A DNA stretch of 63,409 nucleotides, counting the filler, from Basidiobolus ranarum (Eukaryota): assembly GCA_040143965.1 (NCBI GenBank). It is 33 parts of 33 records of this genome, joined end to end, with 100 filler letters (N's around TTAATTAATTAA, not from the genome) between each part and the next. Parts side by side here need not be neighbours in the genome. Positions count along the whole stretch, not along the records: positions 27,020 to 28,844 come from JASJQH010011134.1; 32 more parts are not named here. One strand, written 5' to 3'. Below the pieces are notes generated by a model. It made no database searches. It saw nothing but the letters and a program-made list of their open reading frames with translations, and was not told the origin of the DNA. Below, piece by piece: positions 6,449 to 59,577 of this stretch (positions are counted from its first letter, which is position 1; the number at the start of each line of letters is the position of its first letter). The translations under genes and the position numbers were made by a program.

Positions 6449-7632
6449 CTATTTGGTGATTTGATATCAATGAGCATCTTACAATCTGACTGGGCTCTTG
6501 ACAGTAACATCATGGAGTTTAGTTTTGTATTTTGATTGTTGCAATACATATGCCTGATATTGAAAACTCTATTGATTTAATAAACATTCGCCCAGCTGAA
6601 CCCTATTTGATAACCATTCAAATTCTGCAACCAAAGGCTCCAAGAAGGCATCTATAAGCACTGGTTATTTAGGTCCAGATATGATGGATATCATCAAAAT
6701 ATTATGACTCCTACACCACTCAGAAGGAGTAAGATTTAATTTAATTAAGATTATTGGCCAGCAAACCTTTCCAGTGGTACATTTGTTTAGTGCAAAACCT
6801 TCCATAGCCAATGCCAATGCATGATCATATGTGTTCTCAAAAAAACATTGACTTTTCAGATTCTTGCAGTGATATCGATCAAGTATATCAGTAATACCAT
6901 TAGCTTTATGGTGAGTACTTTGGTGTTCGATCAATGATCTATATTTGGGTGATTTCATCAAAGCTCCAGGATAGGGAATCAATGGTATGTAAGCCAAATA
7001 TGAACAATATTTACCCAATTCAGTGATTGCCAATAGTGTGTAAACAGTACACAACTGCAGGTTTTTCAGATCATGGGTGAAAGCCAAACAACCATTTGGA
7101 CTTGAAGGTAACTCAATTACTAAAGGATAATAAGCCATACATTGGACAAGTGTTTTCCACTTGTACATGGTCTGTGGTAAGCAACTGATGCCAAACAAAT
7201 ATGGTAAAAGTTTATAAAAGCCAATTAACACCTGGTTGCCAAGATTTGATTGAACTCTCTACTCCGGAATAATCAAAGCTGCTTCCTTTACTGTAAGTGT
7301 TATGTGTGGACTAATGCTTACCAATAACAAAAATTTTTAACAAAATAATCATGTTCTCCTTTAACTTCTGATATACTACCATCAGTACTGGAATAACCAA
7401 GGTCAACATCTAGCATCATGTCCACAAATTTGAATGGGCTTACTGATATGATCCAAGCTGCCTTTCTACCTACATCATTGTGATGATATTACTGTGGTAA
7501 CTCCATGGTCTCTTGACTTTTGGCAGTGTTACCAAACATTTGTGGTAAAGCACAGCCAGTAGACTAAGTGGGCAAAACTAAAGTCAATTTTGTGCACCTA
7601 TTACTGTTAATATTTACCTGGGTTTGTGCAGC
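6449..7632 (-). mobile_element. CACTA/CMC transposase, N-terminal and catalytic-start region, with an internal deletion
   Basis: ORF 6665-7231: PNGCLAF, YLAYIPLIP, DILD.YH, ALAMEGF, WPIILI.LNL.P. Confidence 0.8.
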
Positions 7633-27019: not shown

Positions 27020-27118
27020 TATAAATGTCAACTTTCTACTCAATAAATCAATAAGTGAAAACCACCAATTCCTCTAATTCTCCAAACCACTTCCAACAGG
27101 CTCCCAAATACTTTAACA
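27020..27118 (+). repeat. LTR-B, 3' part
   Basis: Ends GGCTCCCAAATACTTTAACA. Confidence 0.8.
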
Positions 27119-27571
27119 GAGAAATGCCTAAGTCTTTAAAGTGCTTGCTTACCCACATAGCCTCCTTTGTTGATGTCATGCTGCCATTTAATCTCCTTCA
27201 GTTGTACAAAGTGCTATGGTAGGTTGTTTCATGCTACTCCAAGATATGGCACCTTCACTATAGAGAAAGATTTATCCAGTTATAGATCTTCTGTCCTCAA
27301 AATCATGTCCCCAATCTGAATCACCAAACCCAATTAGATCCTTATTTACATATGAATATGCATATCTTAATCCAAGCTCAATTATCCCCTTTAAATATCT
27401 GAAAATCCACACAACTGCTGCAAAATGCTCAGATCCTGGGTTTTGCACATCTTGGTTGACTACTCCCACCACAAAAGAGAAGCTACACAGTTCCCTTTTT
27501 GACCACTAGTAGTACAGCTATTTTCATCAAATTGAAGCTGTATCTCAGATGTAGCTTTGCTTGTTAATAAC

Positions 27572-27852
27572 TATTGAAATTACTTTGGGAGAAATATTGG
27601 TCTGGCCAGGGTTTGAACCTGGGACCTCCTTCACTCTAGTAAGGAGCTCTAACCACTGAGTTAGCAGTCCTTGTATGCTATGCCTATATTGCTAGGGAAC
27701 CTTAACTTAGTCTGCCAAGGTATGGTTCTTTGGCATATTGGCGATACAAGCAACTGATTGGCCTTAGACTTTGTGTTCAATGCAGTTGCCATACTCCATA
27801 TTTTCCTCTTTGGGAATTACTGCCTATACCACAAGTCACCAGACTATCAACA
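27572..27852 (-). mobile_element. Solo-LTR-like element (281 bp, family E) containing a tRNA-like sequence; 5-bp TSD ATAAC
   Basis: Minus-strand ends TGTTGA…TTCAATA, with ATAAC at 27567-27571 and 27853-27857. Removing it restores a continuous copia pol segment; second copy at 39969-40250. Confidence 0.8.
27598..27670 (-). tRNA. tRNA-like sequence (73 nt, anticodon position AGA, short variable loop); probably TE-borne rather than a translational tRNA
   Basis: GGACTGC TA ACTC AGTGGTTA GAGC T CCTTA CTAGAGT GAAGG AGGTC CCAGG TTCAAAC CCTGG CCAGACC A. Canonical spacing, A and B boxes and a perfect T-stem, with mismatches in the other stems. Confidence 0.6.
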
Positions 27853-28139
27853 ATAACAGACTCTTGGCTATCCCAGTTACATATAGCACATTTTTCAGTA
27901 TTTGACACAAGCCCCCTGAGATGCGCTCAAGATTGACTTCTATCTCTTCCACTCCCAGAGCTTCTATTGGCAGGTCATCTGTCATATAGACCTTCCCATT
28001 TATATCAATTTTGAGTGTTTTAAACCAGTTTTTTAATTAGAAATGTTTAGTGGCTCCAGAATCAATGTACCACATACTACAGTTTTGTTCAGAGTCACTG
28101 ATATGGCAGAAATAAATGAAACTTCCTCTTTGATTGAAA

Positions 28140-28844
28140 CTTGATTTTGTTTCTTTGACATCTCATTTTTCCGTAATTTCCAAATTAGCAATTCTTTATA
28201 TGGTGCCTAGGTATGTGAGGTTGGAGAGCTGTGAGCTTTATTTGCTGGTGTTTTGGCTTGTTGAGAGGTGCCAGGTGTTGGACAAACTTCCAAATTTAGT
28301 ACTCTTCCAACTGGTGAACCCAGTTCCATGGTAAAACTAAGCTTTTTTGCTAGTATATCTGACTCTGAAAATGCAGATCTTCATAATAGTGTGAAGAATT
28401 TGGTAAGTGGGACAGTAGAGCCTAAGCTCACTGGCTCCTTTGCTTTTGCCTTGATTTTACTAAGTTCCTGCTCCTTCAGTACTTCTTTAGCTGCTTTTCT
28501 TTCTTTTCTAAGATGATAATTGCATACATTTTTGAGATATTCATGAATAGGCCTACATTAGCCCAATTGCCACTTGCTTGCAAAAACCCAGGATAAGCCA
28601 CATGAAATAAGTTGAGAACCTTCAGAGTATTGTCTGGTTTTTGGTTTTTCCATGATTGGCTCAAATCCAGGTGATTTTGGGCAAGATTCTGCACAGTTTC
28701 CAAAATGTTAAACCACTCATCATCAGAGCAAGTGATGGCAGCTCTGATATTCAGAGTCTTTTGGTTTGCCAGTTGTGCTATGAGATTTCTACTTTCATGT
28801 TCCTAAGCACTTTTGGGTTGTTCTGTAGGCTTAATGGTCCACAA
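28140..28844 (-). pseudogene. CACTA-like accessory ORF, 3' part
   Basis: ETVQNLAQNHLDLSQSWKNQKP…FHVAYPGFLQASGNWA. Confidence 0.65.
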
Positions 28845-30869: not shown

Positions 30870-32693
30870 TAGATGCATCAGTATCAACAAAGACAGGCTT
30901 GGAAAAGTCCGGATAAGATACAGTAGCAGCTTGGGGAAGCATTGTGCACAGTGAATCAAATGCTTGATCATGCACTTTGGTCCAAACTCAGGGTAGATTT
31001 GGGTTATGCTGTAAGAAATCAAGTGGGGCACTTAGAGTAGAGGGGAGTGGCATATGTTCCCTGAAATAGTTGAAGACTCCAAGGTAGAGTTGAAGTTGTT
31101 GAGTGGTAGTAAGATTAGGCCAATCCTTAATGTTGACTAACTTGAAAGGATCTAATTGGTGGCCTATAGGAGTAGCAATAAAACCAAGTAGATTGATTTT
31201 AAGACAAGCAAAGCTGCATTTGTCAGCATTCAGGATAAGTCCAGCAGAAGTAGAAGGTTGATAATATCAGTCACTTGGGTTGCATGATCAGCTCTATTGG
31301 TTGAGAGAATGATAACATCATCAACAAACACTAAGGCATAGCTGGCATCTTTGAGAATAATAGTCATGACTATTTGAAACTTGCTGGTCAACGTCTTGTG
31401 AGCAAGTCCAAAGGGTGCTCCTTGAAACATCCATTGCATGTTTCTCCATGTGAAAGCAGTCTTGTGTTGGTGATCTGGATGGATCAGAAATTGGTAATAA
31501 GCATCTTTTAAATCCAATTTTGAAAAACTTGTGCTGCTGAGAGTGAGGAAAAGATCGCATTGATCTTAGGTATAGGAAATTTATCATCCTGTAGTAGTTT
31601 GTTTAGAGGTCTTGGATCCAAATAGGGTCTTTTTAGAGTAAGGTTTCCTTCTGAATCCTTCTTTGCTGCTAAAGTCAAGGGGCTGTTGAAGGTAGTGCTG
31701 ACAGGTGCTTGAGTGATAATGCCTTTATCAGCCCATATCTGTACTACTTCATCAACCAAAGGTTGTAGTGTATGTGGAATTGGATATTGTCTTCTCCAAG
31801 TTGTTTCTCCAGATGGTGTTTCCAAGGTAATAAGTGACTCTGGTATTGTGCAGAAGCTGTTTTTCAGGATCTTCTGGTTTCTCTCAATAGCAGGTTGAAT
31901 GGCTACTTTGACAGAGTTGAGAAGGAAGGTGATAATTATTCTTGTTCAGAAGTTTCTGATTTTACTTCTGGTTTGTGATCAGAATCAGGTGGTAGAGATT
32001 TGGTGAATCCAGGATAAGAGACAGGTAGTCCTCCTACATTGAAGCCAAGTTAGGTGAAGATATCTAGACCAACAACAACTAAAGGTCCATCAGGGATGTT
32101 GATGACTTCCATGTGGTGTGAAATATGAGAATTTCCATATTCTATATTGAAAGAGTTGGTGATTCCTATTCTTGGGGCAGAAACATCTTTGGCAGCAAGA
32201 ATAATGGTTCCAGGCCACTCTTCTAATTCCAAATTGAGTTCTTCAACTACTGTGGGTGAGACAATAGAGTTGGTAGATCCAGTATTCAAGAGTGCTACAT
32301 AATGGTGACCATTAAATTTTAAGGGTACTTCAATAGCTTTAAGGTGGTTGGTTGATTGCTTCTTATCTTTGACAGTGGCAATTTTGGCTGAACAGTCAAA
32401 GAGATTTTGGTAGTCTTGTACTGTGAGTTCTTGATAAGCTTCTTCAAAGCTGGTAAAATCTTCTGCAGGTGTAGCCTCCAGTTGTGATGATGAATCCTTG
32501 GAGACTTCAGCGAGTTTAGCAGTAGGTGCTTTGTTTTGTGGGCATGCAGGTGCTCTATGACCAAGTTCATTGCATTTAAAGCAGCAGTCATCAGCATAGG
32601 GATTTTCTTGCTTGGTGGTTGGTTGGTTTGGCTTGCCAGATGTTGAGTTTGACTTGTTTGCTTGATTGGCTAAAGTTCTACAATCATTGGTAG
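30870..32693 (-). mobile_element. Ty3/gypsy gag-pol remnant (zinc knuckle, protease, RT, start of RNase H linker)
   Basis: CFKCNELGHRAPAC, LLNTGS (decayed DTG), RRQYPIP, FNSPL, DLKDAYYQ, KTAF…PFGL and FVDDVII motifs in gypsy order. Confidence 0.9.
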
Positions 32694-32793: not shown

Positions 32794-33519
32794 GTTGAAT
32801 AGTAAGTGCATGGTGCCTAATGGGAAGCTCTGGCTCCAGCTGATCCCCTTTAGCAATATAATCTTAGGCTTACGGCTAATACCAAGTTTGATGTTAGACT
32901 GACTATTTGGTGAATTGATATCAGTGATCATGTTGAAATCTGACCGGGCTCTTGACGGTAAAATCATGGAGTTTAGTGTTGTATTTGGATAGTAGTAATG
33001 CGTATGCCTGTTAGAGTAAACTCCATTGATTTGACAAAATCTACAGCAAGATAGTGCATTGTGCCCACAAAAACCTCCAAGTTTACTGATGGCAGGAGTG
33101 TCACCAATACATACAATGATATTAGCTTTAATAAAATATTCACCCATCTGAACCCCATTAGATAACCATTCAAATTCCACAATCAAAGGCTCCAAGAAGC
33201 TATCTATAAGCACTGGTGATTTAGGTCCAGATATGATGGATAGTATCAAAATATTATGACTCTTATACCATTCAGAAGGAGGAAGATTTAAGTTGATTAA
33301 AATTATTGGCCAGCAAGCCTTTCCAACGGTATATTTGTTTAGTGAGAAACCATCCAGAGCCAATGCAAATGCATGATCATACATGTTCTCAAAGAAACCT
33401 TGACTTTTCAGATTCTGGTAGTGATATCCATCAAGTATATTGGTAATACCATCAGCTTTATGGTGAGTACTTTGGTATTGGATCAATGATCTATATTTGG
33501 GTGATTTCATCAAAGCTTT
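32794..33519 (-). mobile_element. Best-preserved CACTA/CMC (Tnp2-type) transposase core, open for ~240 codons
   Basis: ALALDGF, WPIILINLNLPP, IISGPKSP, DSFLEPL, IGDTPA, GHNA..CCRFC and LGTMH; retains CpGs lost in the other copies. Confidence 0.88.
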
Positions 33520-33629
33520 ACCAAAATGTATAAATGCTTCACTTCTGGACAATAAATAATTATCTCACAAAAGCTATTCACAACTCCACTTTTCTAAAGT
33601 TCCTCTAAGCAGCCCATATTTTCCCAATA
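33520..33629 (+). repeat. LTR-A, 3' part
   Basis: Ends TTCCCAATA. Confidence 0.8.
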
Positions 33630-36640: not shown

Positions 36641-37521
36641 GTAGACTGCTTAGAAGAGTCATAATGACATCTTCTTCTTGTAAAGTTGCACCAATATTTT
36701 CCAATTGTTTTGCCAAAGATCTCATATTTCCAATATGAGTAACCATGCTTTCAGACTTTACCATCTTTGTATTGAAGAATTTTTGTCTGAGAAAGAGTCT
36801 ATTAGCAAGACTCTGTGCCTCATGACACACTTTAAATATTGTCCAAGCTTGATGGAAGCCTTTGCATATTAAATGTTTGCAAGTTTAGAATCTTTCAAAC
36901 TTTGACAAATGACATTAAAGGCCTTGTTGTCTCTTTTCTTGTGAGCTTCAATAAAGAAGGGTCAGAAGATTCCTTTTCAACTCCAGCAATTACATCCCAA
37001 AGCTCCCTCTCTTCCTGCTTGATTTGCATCTTGAACTTCCAGAAATTGCTGTTTTCTCCATCCAGCATTTCTACACTTGTGTTAATAAAAGTGGTAGTAG
37101 TGGTTTCTGTCATGCTGTTAAGGTTAGAGCACAGGGCTCATAATCTATTGGGAAAATACGGGCTTTTGTAGGAACTCTAGAAAAGTGGAGTTATGAATAG
37201 ATTTGTGAGCTAATTATTTATTGTCCAGAAACAAAGCATTTATACATTTAGGTGGAAACACAAAAAACTAACACTGGAGTTGTGTTCAGAACACCTGTGG
37301 AAGTAAAATGAGATCTTTTTGGGGCTGTTTGGACAAGTTTGAAATTTCCAATATGGAATTGCTAAATCTCATATTATTACTTATGTTTACAATATATGTT
37401 CCAATTAGTAATTAAGTGATATTTGACTAAGTAATCTTAGCTGACTTAAATGTGATATATGAAGTAGTTATGTGTATAATGATAGAGATAACAATGATGA
37501 TAAAGACAATAAAACTCAACA
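36641..37521 (-). mobile_element. 5' end of copia family A: LTR (37146-37521), PBS (37131-37145), gag from 37113
   Basis: LTR…CAATA-GATTATGAGCCCTG, then MTETTTTTFIN..LDGEN.NFWKFKMQ. Confidence 0.9.
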
Positions 37522-38563: not shown

Positions 38564-39210
38564 TTAGTTATCTTATAATTCATCAAGATATTATCAGTTA
38601 TTCTCAATTGGAATTTACATAGATTATTTTTACCAACTTAGATGTTGTCAGATATACAGATTTTTCAAATTAGTGCTAGAAGCCCCAAACTTTGCACACA
38701 TGTTCCTGGGACCTTCCTTAACATATTCTGTATTTTAGTTTGTTTACATCTTGACAAAACTATAAATGTCAACTTTCTACTCAATAAATCAAATCAGTAG
38801 TAGGTACTCTAATTAATTCCATTTCATCTGCTAAAATGGTGACTCTATTAATTAGTGATTTATGTTGAAATTAGCATTGCCTAAACACCTATATGGTCAT
38901 ATATAACTTAGTAATTAGTTATCTTATAATTCACTAAGATATTATCAATTATTCTCAATCAGAATTTACTTAGAATAATTTTACTAACTTAGAAGTTCTC
39001 AGATATATAGATTTTTCAAACTTGTGCTAGATGCCCCAAACTTTGCACACATGTTCCTGGGACCTTCCTTAACATATTCTGTATGTTAGCTTGTTTACAT
39101 CTTGACAAAACTATAAATGTCAACTTTCTACTCAATAAATCAATAAGTGAAAACTACCAATTCCTCTAGTTCTCCAAACCACTTCCAACAGGCTCCCAAA
39201 TACTTTAACA
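38564..39210 (+). repeat. Partial LTR-B (38564-38790) and complete LTR-B (38863-39210)
   Basis: TGTTGAAA…TTTAACA ends; near-direct duplicate of the partial copy. Confidence 0.85.
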
Positions 39211-39224
39211 GACTCTAATACTCC

Positions 39225-39968
39225 AAAAAAGCTATGTGGTGATTAAAGTTATTTATGGACTTAGGATACATGCAAAATGGGCTATTACTTTATTTGAAGA
39301 TAATCAAAGAAGTATTTCATATCCTAAAAACCCTACATTTCATGCTATTGCCTTAACAACAAAATGTTTGTTGTCATCTTAACCAAACCATTAGCTAAAG
39401 CACAACTTGAGTTATTAAGATAAAGGTTAGGTTTAAAAGAAATACAAATTAACTAGTTGAATGGGTGTGTAAAAATTATGAAAATAGCAACATATTATTT
39501 AATAGTTAGTTTATTCATGTTCTGACTATTTAGCACTAAATTGTGCCATTTAAAAAAGCTTGTTTATTGCTGTAATTGATGGAAATATTATTAAGATCAC
39601 TTTTGCCAATTTAAACTGTTTTCAAAACTTCCCCAAATCACCTCATATTTTTACCCATACTTTACAGGCATGTTTAATGTAATCTAAGCATGTCTAATAG
39701 TCTTATTTTGTAGTAAACTATGAAAAGACCATATTCTAAATCGTAAAAATTAAGTATTTAATCCACAAATCCAAATCTGGTCAGAAACACTTTCGAATCC
39801 CCTGAACATTTAACAGGTTATGAGCCCCAAGGCTGCTGTAAAAGGAATGTTAACCAGTACTATTACCAAAGTTCTTGTATTGACACAGAAGCTTGCTGGT
39901 GAAGGCTTTCACCTTTGGAAGTTCAAGATGCAAATGGAGCTAGAAGGCAAGGACCTTTAGGGATTTAT
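39225..39968 (+). mobile_element. Copia family C junction: RNase H end, PPT, LTR-C (39468-39815), PBS (39816-39828), gag start
   Basis: FEDNQ..ILTKPL; PBS GGTTATGAGCCCC; FHLWKFKMQMELE. Confidence 0.8.
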
Positions 39969-40250
39969 TATTGAAATTGTTTAGGGAGAAATATTGATCT
40001 GGCCAGGATTTGAACCTGGGACCTCCTTCACTCTAGCAAGGTGCTCTAACCACTGATCTACCAGTCCTTTTATGCTATGCCTATATTGCTAGAGAACCTT
40101 AACCTAGCCTGTCAATGTATGGTACTTTGGCATTTCAGCTATACAAGCAACTGATTGGCCATATACTTTGTGTTCAGATGCAGTCACCATACTCCATATT
40201 TTCCTCTTTGGGATTTACTGCTTGTACCACAAGTCACCTGACTTTCAGCA
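39969..40250 (-). mobile_element. Second copy of the tRNA-bearing LTR-like element (family E)
   Basis: Colinear with 27572-27852 end to end; no TSD because the two flanks are different sequences. Confidence 0.78.
39995..40067 (-). tRNA. tRNA-like sequence inside family E element
   Basis: GGACTGG TA GATC AGTGGTTA GAGC A CCTTG CTAGAGT GAAGG AGGTC CCAGG TTCAAAT CCTGG CCAGATC A. Confidence 0.6.
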
Positions 40251-40347
40251 TTCAATGCAATAAAGCATAAGTGTCTAATTCCCAAATCCAAATCCTGTCC
40301 AAAACACTTCCAAGTCCCCTAAACACTTTTATCAGGCTATGAGCCCC
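40251..40347 (+). repeat. LTR-C 3' end with PBS
   Basis: ACACTTTTATCA followed by GGCTATGAGCCCC. Confidence 0.75.
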
Positions 40348-46369: not shown

Positions 46370-48069
46370 TTCAACAGTATCAATGCTAATTGCTTCCAAT
46401 GTGACATTAATCAAAATTTCATCCAAATGGCATGAAATAATCAAAATCAAAGCCAGTTGTTGCCTTATCATTCCATGGTGGGTAGTTTAATGCCTACAAT
46501 GGCAAGAACATGTACAGACATTGCTGTGGCAATGAGAACTGTCAGAAAATATCTCTAAAATACAAGATCTGAGCCAAAAACTGCAGTGAAATGAATATGC
46601 GGGTGTTTGTGAGGAACTTTAGATCAAGTTTTCAGATACTCTGCCACTCCAGATGTACAGAATTTTGAAGGCTATAGTGATGTAGACTGGGGAAAAAGCC
46701 TTGATCATTGAAGGTAACAACTGGGTTCACTTATCTCTATGGTAATGCAGCCATAACTTGGAATAGCTAGGAACAACCAACCAAAGCACTTTCCACTATA
46801 GATGCAGAGTATATGGCTGCCTCTGTAAGAAGATATGTGGTTGAGGAAGTTACTTATAGTCCTAGAATACATGCAAAATTGTGCTGTTACTATATTTGAA
46901 GATAATCAAAGTGGTATTTCATTGGCTAAAAACCCTACATTTCAAGCTAGGACAAAACATATGATATTAAACATTATTTTGTTACAGAAGCAATAGGGAA
47001 TGATATAATCAAACTTGTCTATTACCAAATGAAGAAAAGCTTACTGACATCTTAACCAAACCAACAGCTGAACAACAATTTGAATGATTCAGATATACAT
47101 TAGGTTTAAGCAAAATGCAAAATATAAAGTTTAGTGAGAGTGTTGAAATTAGATATATAGCTACTCATTTTTTAGTAGTCAATTTATTCATATTCTAATT
47201 ATTAAGCACTCAATTCTGCCACTTATATACATGTGTCTATCACTCTAGTTGATAAAATCTTCAACCTGATCACTGTTATTTATTTTGACTATTTTCTCAA
47301 ATCTTCTGCAAATCACCTCAAATTTTCACATATGATTAACAAGCATGTTTGCTATGTCTAAGCATTTCCAATAGTCCTATATTATGGTAAGCCCTAAATA
47401 GGACATATTCAATTCAATAAAACTTAAGTTTCCAATTCAAGAATCCAAATCTTGTCCCAGAAACTTTTAAATCCTCCTAACACTGTTATCAGGTTATTAG
47501 CCCCCAGCTAGCTGTTACAGAAGTGTCTACCAGTACTATTACCAACATTTTTGCATCCACAGAGAAGTTAGATGGTCAAGATTTTCCTCTTTGGAAGTTC
47601 AAGATGCAAATGGCGCTAGAAGTTCAGCACCATTGGGGATTTGTTAATGGAGAAGAAATAGAGCCAAAGGGACCACCAGAAACTATCTTTGCCTTTCACA
47701 AGAGTCAGAGGAAGGCACTCTCTACACTTTGTCTACAACTCAGAGATTCTCAATTGAGGCACATTTAATCAGCCAAAAACAACCAAAATGCTTGGGAAAC
47801 ACTTGAGGGACTATAAATCAGGCCATTTAATCCAAGATTCCATTTAACCAGAGAATGCAGAAAAAGGATTTTTGCGAAAGAGCTAAAATTGGAACAAGCT
47901 AATCAAGTAAGCAATGATAGGGTTCCTGTGTTTGTTTCTGCCCTATCAGTGACTACTAAAGAAGACTCAGAAATGTGGTACAGTGATTCAGGAGCTTCCC
48001 AATATGTGTCAAACAAGAAAGAATGGTTATACACCTCAAATTGAATCCATACAAGGAAAGTCTACATAG
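46370..48069 (+). mobile_element. Copia family C junction: RT end and RNase H, PPT, LTR-C (47141-47491), PBS (47492-47504), gag, protease remnant
   Basis: GYSDVDWG, EDNQSGI, DILTKP; TGTTGAAA…TTATCA-GGTTATTAGCCCC; KLDGQDFPLWKFKMQMALE; WYSDSGAS. Confidence 0.85.
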
Positions 48070-48169: not shown

Positions 48170-49289
48170 GTCCAAACTATAGAGGTACTTACTCTGTGTC
48201 CATGGATTGGGTTTTGTTGCTGTTATTGTGCTCAAACAATGCAAAAACCTGTGAGCACATTGAAAAGAGCCCTTTGTTAAAAGATTAATATACTCTGAAT
48301 TCTCCTTAACCCTTGCATTATATCCAACACTGATTTTGCTGATACATTGTTAATCAGATAAGCATAGAGTACTACTAACAATTTCACATGGAGCATCATT
48401 TCACCACAGGTGTGCTCAATTGGGAACTCCCAGAATGTATACCAAGGGCCTATAATCTCTAAGCACCACAAAAGATGCAGCAGGGAATATATTGAATACT
48501 GGCATAGATTCAGTCTATCTTCTTTAAACATGTTATAAAGATTTTCATATCCAATTACAAAATCTTCCCGCAGTGGCTGTATGTGCATGAGATCTGCTAA
48601 TGTGAATTGATTCCACAAGAATATATTAACAATATCCACAAACAATCCCCAATGTTGCCAATACTTATCAGGCAGAAATCTTTTCAAGATTCCACTTAAA
48701 TATATACAAATCCAATACATCTAGTCTTTGCATTTGAATAAACACCTAGATGAGCAGATATTGATGGGAGTCCTGGTAAAATATTATGGTATCTTGATGT
48801 TTTCAAGCATTTTCCCAATAGATTTAAACTTTGATCCTATCTCAAATGGCTCATTCATATTGAACTTTCCACTATATTGCTGAGTAATTAGTTCTGGAAT
48901 ATTTTTGAATAGTGAGTGCATAGTGCCTAATGGGAAGCTCTGGCTCCAGCTGATCCCAATTAGCAATGTAATCTTAGGCTTACAGCCAATACTGAGTTTG
49001 ATGTCAGACTGACTATTGTGTGAATTGATATCAATGATCATGTTGAAATCTGACCAGGCTCTTGACAGTAAAATCATGGAGTTTAGTGTTGTATTTGGAT
49101 AGTAGTACTGCATATGCTTGATAGAGTAAACTCCATTGATTTGACAATATCTAGAGCAAGATAGTGCATTGTGCCTGCAAAAACCTCCAAATTTACTGAT
49201 GGCAGGAGTGTCACCAATACATACAAAGATATAGCTTTAAGAAAATATTCACCCATCTAAACCCCATTAGATAACTGTTCAAATTCTGC
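48170..49289 (-). mobile_element. CACTA/CMC transposase 3' half
   Basis: GDTPA, FPLGTMH, YWQHW and LLHL…GP…FWEFPIE..CG motifs. Confidence 0.85.
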
Positions 49290-57760: not shown

Positions 57761-59577
57761 ATGAGAAGCAACCTTCTGACCCTTCTTCATTGGAAGCTTA
57801 CAAGAAAAGAGACAAGAAGCCCTTTAATGTCATTTGTCAAAGCTTGAAGGATTTACAACTTGTGAATATTCAATATGCAAAGACTTCCCATCAAGCTTGG
57901 ACTTTATTAGAAGAGTGTTTTGAAGCAAAGAGTCTTGCTAATAGACTCTTTCTGAGATGAAAATTCTTCAATACAAAAATGGAAAAGTCTGACAGCATGG
58001 TTACTCATATTGCAAATGTGAAATCTTTGGCAAAACAACTGGAATATATTGGTGCAATTCTACAGGAAGAAGATGTCATCATGACTCTTATAAGTTGTCT
58101 ACCAAAACACTATTCAAACTTGGTCACTACTTTGGGAGAAAGATCTGACAAGTTATCATTGGAGTTTGTGGTGGCAAGACTAATGGATCAACACCTGAGT
58201 AGTAAGAATTTGGAAAAAGGATCTGAGGCAGGGGCTCTTTTTCAAGCTGGAAAATGTAGCTTTAGTAAGTGCAAAGGTTACAGAAGAAGGAAAACCAGGC
58301 TTATGCTGTGGTTGTAACAAACCTGGACACCAGTTAAAAGATTGCATATCAAGAAATTACTACAAAAATGAGAAGTCAGAACAAGCAAATCAGGCCTTAA
58401 CTAAAGAGAAGTTTTATTCATTTCCGCCCTATCAGTGACCTCTGAGCAAAAGTGTATGATGTTGTTTTTGATTCTGGAGCCTCTCAACAATTCTCCAATC
58501 AAAAAACTGGTTTAAGACACTCAAACTGACATAAACAGAAGGTTTATATGGGAGATGACCAGCTACTAAAAGCTCTGGCAGTGGGAGAAGTTGAAGTTGG
58601 TCTTGGGGGCATCTCTGGGGACATGTATTTGACACTACAAATATGTTATATGTGCCTGGGATAGCAAAATTTTTGTTATCAGTGAGCACAGTTCCATCTG
58701 AGGGATAAAGCTTCAATTTTGATCAAAATGGCTGTACAATCAGGGATCACAAAGAGGCTTATGTAGCTTTGGAAGCTGAGCAAAATAATTTAAAGAAACT
58801 TCATTATACTAGGCCAATATATGAACAAGCTAATACTGCCACAGCTGAAGAGATAGACTGGACAATCTGGCATCGGAGATTGGGTCATCTAAGAGCTGAA
58901 AATATGAGAAATTTAATCAAAAACAAGATGGTTTTGGCACTCAATTTTGTAAGTCTACCAGATCTGGAATTATGTAAAGGTTGCCAATATGACCGGCATC
59001 ACAGAGAGCCATTTGTGGGCTCTGGAATGAGCAAAACGGATCAAAAATTGGGCCTGATACACTCAGATCTGTGTGGCCCAATGCAGACAAAATGCTTAGG
59101 CAGAAAAACCAATATTATGACCTTAATTGATGATAAGACAAAGGACACTTGGGTGTACTTTCTGGCCAGTAAGGATGAAGCCGTTGATACCTTCAAGAAA
59201 TTCAAAGCCATGGTGGAGTCTGTAATAGGTCTGAAGATTGAGATTATCCATACTAAAAATGGAGAGGAATATATCTCAAAGCTCTTCTCTGACTTCTGCT
59301 CAACAGATGAGATAAAACAGCAGCCTACAGTGCCATATTCCTTGCAGCAGAATGGAGTAGTAGAACTAGCAAATAGATCAGTAATGGAAAAGGCAAGATC
59401 AATGCTTCATGATCTTGATTTACCAAAACAATTCTGGGCTGAATTGGTAGCAATTGCAGTATATACTAGGAATAGATGTCCTTCTGGGTCTCTATGGGCT
59501 ATGACACCTTATCAAGCTTGGTTTACAAGTAAACCTGATGTGGCTAATCTCAGAGTTTATGGAACTGCCACATATTC
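57761..59577 (+). mobile_element. Copia family A gag-pol: gag, zinc knuckle, protease, GAG-pre-integrase, integrase core
   Basis: CCGCNKPGHQLKDC, FDSGAS, WHRRLGH, IHSDLCGPM, IDDKT, PYS.QQNGV.E and LPKQFWAE motifs; a few stops and frameshifts. Confidence 0.92.

Follow-up and report, generated by a model that had tools for sequence, protein, structure and literature searches.

The closest described counterparts of the element reported here are the Helenus elements, terminal-repeat retrotransposons in miniature, or TRIMs, that carry tRNA-derived sequence in their long terminal repeats (LTRs) and are grouped with Ajax and Cassandra as TRIMp3 (Kojima 2024, Biology 13:119, PMC10886601). Whole Helenus/TRIMp3 elements are 311-1263 bp long and consist of two LTRs around a short internal part with a site for primer binding (PBS) and a polypurine tract (PPT) (PMC10886601). 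In fungi, 113 Helenus families have been reported from Pucciniales and a few from Agaricomycetes; they make 5-bp target duplications, and some of the families are known only as fragments and as solo LTRs flanked by 5-bp duplications (PMC10886601). They are thought to be moved by Copia elements, and their LTRs are unlike the Copia partner's (PMC10886601). Here we describe a 281-bp unit in a 63,409-base stretch of DNA (hereafter the window) from the Basidiobolus ranarum assembly GCA_040143965.1, and we argue that this unit is probably the solo LTR of a small non-autonomous element of Helenus type (TRIMp3), that is, of a TRIM with tRNA-derived LTR sequence.

The 5S module of Cassandra has been shown to be an RNA polymerase III (Pol III) promoter and the same role has been proposed for the tRNA module of Helenus, while a role as a primer supplied in cis was rejected because the Helenus tRNA-like part has no complementarity to the PBS (PMC10886601). 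The tRNA-like parts of Helenus are mostly called by tRNAscan with isotype disagreement, the types include Thr-AGT and Ser-AGA, and in rust fungi most of the predicted genes of some tRNA types are Helenus copies (PMC10886601). An earlier examination of the present DNA (the sequence-only reading) had proposed an LTR or TRIM family with a captured tRNA gene, a possible tRNA counterpart of Cassandra; the cis-supplied primer, rejected for Helenus, is one of the four functions that it suggested for the module. This was right in kind, but that counterpart has been in print since 2024 as Helenus.

The window consists of 33 unplaced contigs, arranged in order of size from 1834 down to 1816 bp and joined by 44 N, a 12-base all-frame stop linker and another 44 N, so that neighbouring contigs are not physically linked. 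The structural evidence below is drawn from within this window, and the element under study lies on contig 15 (positions 27020-28844). Its surroundings there, and the paralogous site used for comparison, are as follows:

27567 to 27571, no strand: left copy of the target-site duplication, ATAAC, from the sequence and the single ATAAC at the empty site of the contig 31 paralog
27572 to 27852, minus strand (that of the tRNA-like part): copy 1 of the unit, 281 bp, the probable Helenus-type solo LTR, delimited by the limits of similarity with copy 2 and by the flanking duplication
27853 to 27857, no strand: right copy of the target-site duplication, ATAAC, from the sequence and the paralog alignment
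27853 to 28162, minus strand: host copia remnant upstream of the insertion, protease / Pol beta-barrel region (DSGATKHF ... GIAKSLL), from open reading frames (ORFs) and a Pfam match to PF22936 Pol_BBD (E 1.1e-08, for 27836-28036)
27272 to 27571, minus strand: host copia remnant downstream of the insertion, in which the frame continues LLTSKATSEIQLQFDENSC..., from ORFs and BLAST to copia pol pieces in contigs 19, 3 and 28
58675 to 58679, minus strand: empty target site with a single ATAAC in the paralogous copia copy on contig 31, from alignment, sequence and continuous translation across the site

The contig 31 copia paralog is about 75% identical by BLAST, and both flanks of copy 1 are contiguous there around one ATAAC. 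Its translation across the empty site reads ..GIAKFLLSVSTVPSEG*SFNFDQNGCT.., and that of contig 15 reads ..GIAKSLL, then the unit, then LLTSKATSEIQLQFDENSCT.., which is in frame once 281 + 5 bases are discounted; the copia reading frame thus resumes past the unit and one of the duplicates, collinear with the contig 31 translation. The empty-site paralog and the restored copia frame together establish that the unit is mobile and duplicated its target on insertion, and so the 281-bp sequence is a discrete mobile unit inserted in the copia protease region with a short target duplication. About 33 codons past the insertion, the frame of the host copia passes abruptly from protease/pre-integrase sequence to RNase H-like sequence, which means that this copia copy is internally deleted and lacks its integrase and reverse transcriptase.

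The unit contains a tRNA-like part that is shared by a second copy on contig 21:

27598 to 27670, minus strand: tRNA-like cloverleaf of copy 1, 73 nt, anticodon AGA, without a long variable arm, A box with one mismatch, B box GGTTCAAACCC, from ARAGORN, Rfam RF00005 (36.5 bits) and the alignment with copy 2
27671 to 27852, minus strand: part upstream of the tRNA-like unit, 182 nt, with no recognisable RNA family, from the copy alignment and an Rfam E-value scan
27572 to 27597, minus strand: tail after the tRNA-like unit, 26 nt, ending ..AATTTCAATA, with no A-rich or simple-repeat tail, from the sequence and the copy alignment
39969 to 40250, minus strand: copy 2 of the unit, on contig 21, 282 bp long and with 88.7% identity to copy 1, from BLAST of the region against the window
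39995 to 40067, minus strand: tRNA-like unit of copy 2, 73 nt, from ARAGORN and the Rfam tRNA model (47 bits)

When run over the whole window, ARAGORN reports two tRNA-like genes, both on the minus strand, both 73 nt long and both called Ser(AGA), and Rfam at its gathering threshold (29 for the tRNA model) finds these same two tRNA-like parts and no other match there. A Ser-AGA call that lacks the long variable arm marks a pseudo-tRNA; a functional tRNA-Ser gene was considered and rejected, as both parts have a 73-nt class-I shape with anticodon AGA and no long variable arm, and score 36.5 and 47 bits. For genome annotation this matters in practice: both of the window's tRNA-Ser(AGA) calls are relics of transposons, not working tRNA genes.

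The lesions in the two cloverleaves differ. In copy 1 one D-stem pair and one acceptor pair are broken, and in copy 2 a different D-stem pair is; the Rfam tRNA matches show three to four broken pairs. Each A box has one mismatch to the TRGCY..YGG pattern of Kojima, at different positions, and the B box GGTTC is intact in both. The pattern is what one expects if the copies decayed neutrally from a master whose cloverleaf was good. Because the copies are about 11% diverged and each carries A-box and stem-breaking mutations of its own, they are old and both are probably inactive relics.

Outside the tRNA-like part, 161 of 183 alignment columns of the 182-nt part are identical between the copies. 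BLAST similarity between the copies (282 bp) begins and stops exactly at 27572 and 27852, all four junctions of the two copies are precise, and these are the only two copies of the unit that BLAST finds in the window. The sequence-only reading is borne out on most of this anatomy: the 281-bp insertion into a copia remnant (precise ends at 4/4 junctions, an empty-site paralog and a restored frame), the 73-nt cloverleaf with A and B boxes (on which ARAGORN and Rfam agree for both copies), its distance of 26 nt from the element end at 27572, the roughly 180 nt of conserved sequence upstream of it, and a shape that is not that of a short interspersed element (SINE), with 182 nt before the tRNA part and 26 non-repetitive nt, no poly(A) or simple repeat, after it. 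The repeat search found no internal direct repeats or mini-LTRs within the unit, and the idea that the unit is itself a whole TRIM was rejected on this lack of internal terminal repeats and on its single tRNA module. The predicted RNA fold of the whole unit is not notable (z = -1.5).

Copy 2 contains a perfect 9-nt stretch complementary to its own tRNA-like anticodon arm (40031-40039 and 40086-40094, the latter 46 nt off within the 182-nt part), of which copy 1 retains 7/9, about the chance level in 300 nt. It is worth noting because fungal Helenus and Copia elements prime from tRNA anticodon arms.

The ends of the unit were compared with those of two copia LTR families resident in the window, here called X and Y:

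38863 to 39210, plus strand: LTR of family X, 348 bp, TGTTGAAATTAG...ACTTTAACA, present on at least seven contigs (21, 3, 12, 15, 22, 27 and 29)
39473 to 39811, plus strand: LTR of the resident copia family Y, on contig 21, a candidate for the autonomous partner type, from alignments and pattern search
39816 to 39827, plus strand: PBS-like GGTTATGAGCCC right after the 3' end of the Y copia LTR, from alignment and pattern search

These LTRs are about 340-350 bp long. The X LTR starts TGTTGAAATTA and ends ..TTTAACA; the Y LTR starts with the same TGTTGAAATTA, ends ..TTTTATCA and has further copies on contigs 7, 16, 24 and 25. The PBS-like sequence has further matches at 40335-40346 and 47492-47503 on the plus strand and 37134-37145 on the minus strand, four in all against 0.27 expected, immediately past the 3' ends of copia LTRs, and it resembles the Drosophila-copia/Ty5 type of PBS, which pairs with the anticodon arm of initiator tRNA-Met. 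By BLAST within the window the X family is common to contigs 22, 15 and 21, which places the element-bearing contigs in the same genome. Contig 21 also bears a partial X copy (38564-38792), 351 bp upstream of the full X LTR.

The TA-side terminus of the unit, TATTGAAATTA, is one base off the 5' terminus of the resident copia LTRs. The pattern TRTTGAAATTA has seven matches in the window against 0.44 expected, a number reached in 0/100 shuffles; six of the seven coincide with the 5' terminus of an X or Y LTR copy, in one case that of a 24-nt fragment, and the seventh is the unit end at 27572. At its other end the unit starts, on the opposite strand, with TGTTGA (copy 1) or TGCTGA (copy 2). The sequence-only reading had likened the ends to the copia LTRs found "here"; the likeness stands, but those LTRs are on other contigs. 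The resemblance does not extend inward: there is no overall body similarity between the unit and three Y LTR copies (11 of 12 local alignments had z<=1, within the range of shuffles, and one had z=3.1), and the GC content of the unit is about 43% against about 27-31% in the resident copia LTRs. So the unit appears, from these sequence comparisons, to combine LTR-type ends of the local copia kind and a copia-type duplication with a foreign body.

The flanks of copy 2 are less simple than those of copy 1. On the left it adjoins the N-terminal part of a copia gag, interrupted at about codon 50, for which contig 25 has an uninterrupted paralog; on the right it adjoins the interior of a copia LTR, about 85 nt short of that LTR's 3' end, beyond which come a PBS-like GGCTATGAGCCC and the start of a gag. 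The point that corresponds to the right junction is passed without interruption in contigs 24, 16, 7 and 25, and the copia pieces on either side of copy 2 are only 80% identical to each other. The locus is most simply read as a pair of separate insertions brought together either by recombination or in a chimeric short contig. That the copia element downstream of copy 2 has the unit as its 5' LTR was ruled out, since the copia paralogs continue through the junction.

How would such a unit have moved? If it is the solo LTR of a Helenus-type element, the full element would have had two such LTRs around a short PBS-PPT core. By analogy with Helenus and Cassandra, this miniature element may have been packaged by a resident Copia, and a resident Ty1/Copia element would have carried out its reverse transcription and integration in trans. 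A duplication of 5 bp is what copia integrases make. Recombination between the two LTRs would then have left the solo copies, and the tRNA-derived module may have acted within the family as an internal promoter for Pol III, in the manner of the Cassandra 5S module and as proposed for Helenus.

In favour of this assignment, the unit shares with Helenus a tRNA-like sequence with A and B boxes inside an LTR-type unit, a 5-bp duplication, survival as solo LTRs, a Ser-AGA-like pseudo-tRNA, and a body unrelated to the LTR of a resident Copia whose PBS is presumably of the anticodon-arm type. It differs from Helenus in its host, a Basidiobolus-like fungus (Zoopagomycota) as against the published Pucciniales and few Agaricomycetes, and in its non-canonical termini. 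It follows the Cassandra principle, in which the LTR of a non-autonomous LTR element harbours a small-RNA gene module; however, its module is tRNA-like with no 5S match at E<=10 in either copy, its host is a fungus and not a plant, and its tRNA-sense strand has no Pol III terminator-like T run whereas Cassandra conserves the terminator (PMC10886601).

Several observations weigh against the Helenus-type assignment or against parts of it. The window holds two solo copies only, with no paired-LTR copy, PBS or PPT of the unit family, and the likeness to Helenus is to its described features and not to consensus sequences. The termini depart from canonical TG...CA in both copies: the tRNA-sense strand gives TG...TA, the opposite strand TA...CA. 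A target duplication surrounds only one of the two copies; copy 2 has none, because its two flanks derive from non-adjacent copia positions. The sequence-only reading's perfect 5-bp duplication holds in so far as ATAAC flanks copy 1 and is single at the paralog, but the direct repeat lengthens to 6 bp (AATAAC) when the unit's final A is included, and 5 and 6 bp are indistinguishable from copy 1 alone. The expectation that the A and B boxes and stems would be more conserved than their flanks was not borne out: the tRNA-like part (66/73 identical) is not clearly better conserved than the 182-nt part (161/183) or the tail (23/26), in a comparison that with two copies has no power.

The polarity of the tRNA module within the LTR belongs with these points. 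It is not readable from solo copies because the ends are near-inverted repeats. The terminal match to the copia LTR ends is about 17-18/22 with the tRNA antisense and 14-15/22 with it sense (hand count), and it is in the tRNA-antisense polarity that the unit matches the resident LTRs in their T>A, C>G skew; both count against a promoter role. In the other direction, runs of four T are absent from the tRNA-sense strand in both copies and number one and two on the other strand; as about one such run is expected by chance, their absence is a weak pointer to tRNA-sense polarity. Were the tRNA antisense to the LTR, the element could not have its own RNA transcribed from such a Pol III promoter, which would leave the module as a passenger or in another role. 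A bolder variant would make the antisense module not a promoter but something else, such as a chromatin boundary bound by TFIIIC/Pol III, or a passenger.

Could the unit instead be the solo LTR of a full-size LTR retrotransposon, autonomous or large and non-autonomous, with a chance tRNA-derived insert? We regard this as unlikely, though it is the strongest of the alternatives. Only solo copies are seen in the window, 281 bp is compatible with the length of the resident copia LTRs, and "not a few" LTRs in Repbase contain tRNA-like pieces, only some of these being in TRIMs (PMC10886601). The unit also resembles a Ty1/Copia solo LTR in its 5-bp duplication, its terminus and its length of a few hundred bp. 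It differs from one in carrying a whole tRNA-like part and in having a body unrelated to the copia LTRs of the window, a difference that extends to their GC contents, and no coding element in the window bears the unit as its LTR (BLAST, two matches only). A hybrid LTR is the least probable explanation that we considered, and a very doubtful one: copy 2 with the next 85 nt of copia LTR, the PBS and gag would be the 5' end of a chimeric autonomous copia nested in the gag of another copia. Copy 2 does run, on the same strand, into the final ~85 nt of a copia LTR, then a PBS-like sequence and the start of a gag, and the gag that precedes it is from a different copia copy, the two pieces being only 80% identical. 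Yet copy 1 shows the 281-bp unit integrating alone with its own duplication, the copy 2 junction lies exactly at the unit end as in a plain insertion, and chimeric assembly of a 1.8-kb unplaced contig or recombination between insertions is simpler.

The two remaining alternatives do without an LTR. A tRNA-derived SINE or other retroposon, possibly composite and moved by a non-LTR element (long interspersed element, LINE), would account for an A/B-box Pol III module in a short, non-coding, interspersed repeat of which no paired copy is seen, features the unit shares with SINE2 elements. But the module of the unit is not 5'-terminal: it lies 3' of 182 nt that a transcript starting at the tRNA would exclude. 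There is no A-rich, simple-repeat or LINE-like tail, and the 5-bp duplication and copia-LTR-like terminus point to an LTR integrase. A dimeric SINE was also rejected, since Rfam finds no second Pol III module (5S, 7SL or tRNA) in the 182-nt part of either copy at E<=10. We therefore consider a SINE origin improbable, and give slightly less credence still to a miniature inverted-repeat transposable element (MITE) with very short terminal inverted repeats and a 5- or 6-bp duplication. The unit is short, non-coding and of uniform size in both copies, and its ends form an imperfect inverted repeat, TGTTGA.. / TATTGA.., with five of six bases common by eye; against this, the inverted repeat is an imperfect one of about 6-10 nt (the repeat search found no terminal inverted repeat of 8 nt or more), one end matches the 5' termini of the LTRs in the resident copia families, and the window contains no transposase-bearing relative of the unit. 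Duplications of 5 bp are uncommon among cut-and-paste superfamilies.

If the unit is of Helenus type, what is new here is most likely a member of that type in a Basidiobolus-like fungus (Zoopagomycota), outside the published host list, which is a modest addition. A further step, which we put forward tentatively and a little short of calling it probable, is that it represents an undescribed, independently arisen Helenus-type lineage in an early-diverging fungus, moved by a half-tRNA-primed Copia. The main text of Kojima (PMC10886601) contains no occurrence of Basidiobolus, Zoopagomycota, Entomophthor* or Mucor*, although its supplementary tables may list screened genomes. Among the listed literature matches that name Helenus or TRIMp3 none extends the host range beyond Kojima's, and among those listed for Basidiobolus transposable elements, LTRs or genomes none is on such elements by title or abstract. 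In the main text of an entomophthoralean genome paper the terms TRIM, SINE, Copia and solo LTR are all absent. Scans of public DNA with short exact motifs of the unit gave no matches in metagenome, prokaryote genome or viral contig collections, which says little since exact matches were required and most of the material in those collections is non-fungal.

With an element of this type in a Basidiobolus-like fungus, the TRIMp3 host range would reach beyond Dikarya, and the view that LTR parasites have captured Pol III promoters repeatedly and independently would gain support. If the lineage arose independently, the capture of tRNA modules by Copia-dependent miniature LTR elements would be recurrent across the fungal kingdom and not a peculiarity of rust fungi. 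There is also a practical side, in that tRNA-like modules in LTRs inflate tRNA gene predictions, and they spread potential Pol III/TFIIIC binding sites across the genome.

The window contains other features of note. The only clear host gene seen is the C-terminal fragment of a tyrosine aminotransferase on contig 22 (40486-41049, plus strand; 187 residues, intron-free, Pfam PF00155), which is 82% identical to Basidiobolus ranarum and B. meristosporus proteins, the next best matches being at most 64% identical and from other early-diverging fungi; it points to a Basidiobolus-like fungus (Zoopagomycota) as the likely host. A protein atlas lookup of this fragment gave its family but no useful taxa. 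The best matches of the copia integrase are to plants and insects, at 32-46% identity, and tell nothing about the taxon. Three tnp2-like transposase ORFs lie on the minus strand at 32794-33564 (Pfam PF02992 and DUF1258), 48784-49236 and 6665-7258, and one public protein of 698 aa is 93% identical to this transposase; this indicates a putative CACTA/KDZ-like DNA transposon family in the same genome. Finally, another retroelement family is represented by a gag-like ORF (32050-32691, minus strand; Pfam PF00098, PF13650 and PF13975) in which a CCHC zinc knuckle is combined with an aspartyl protease.

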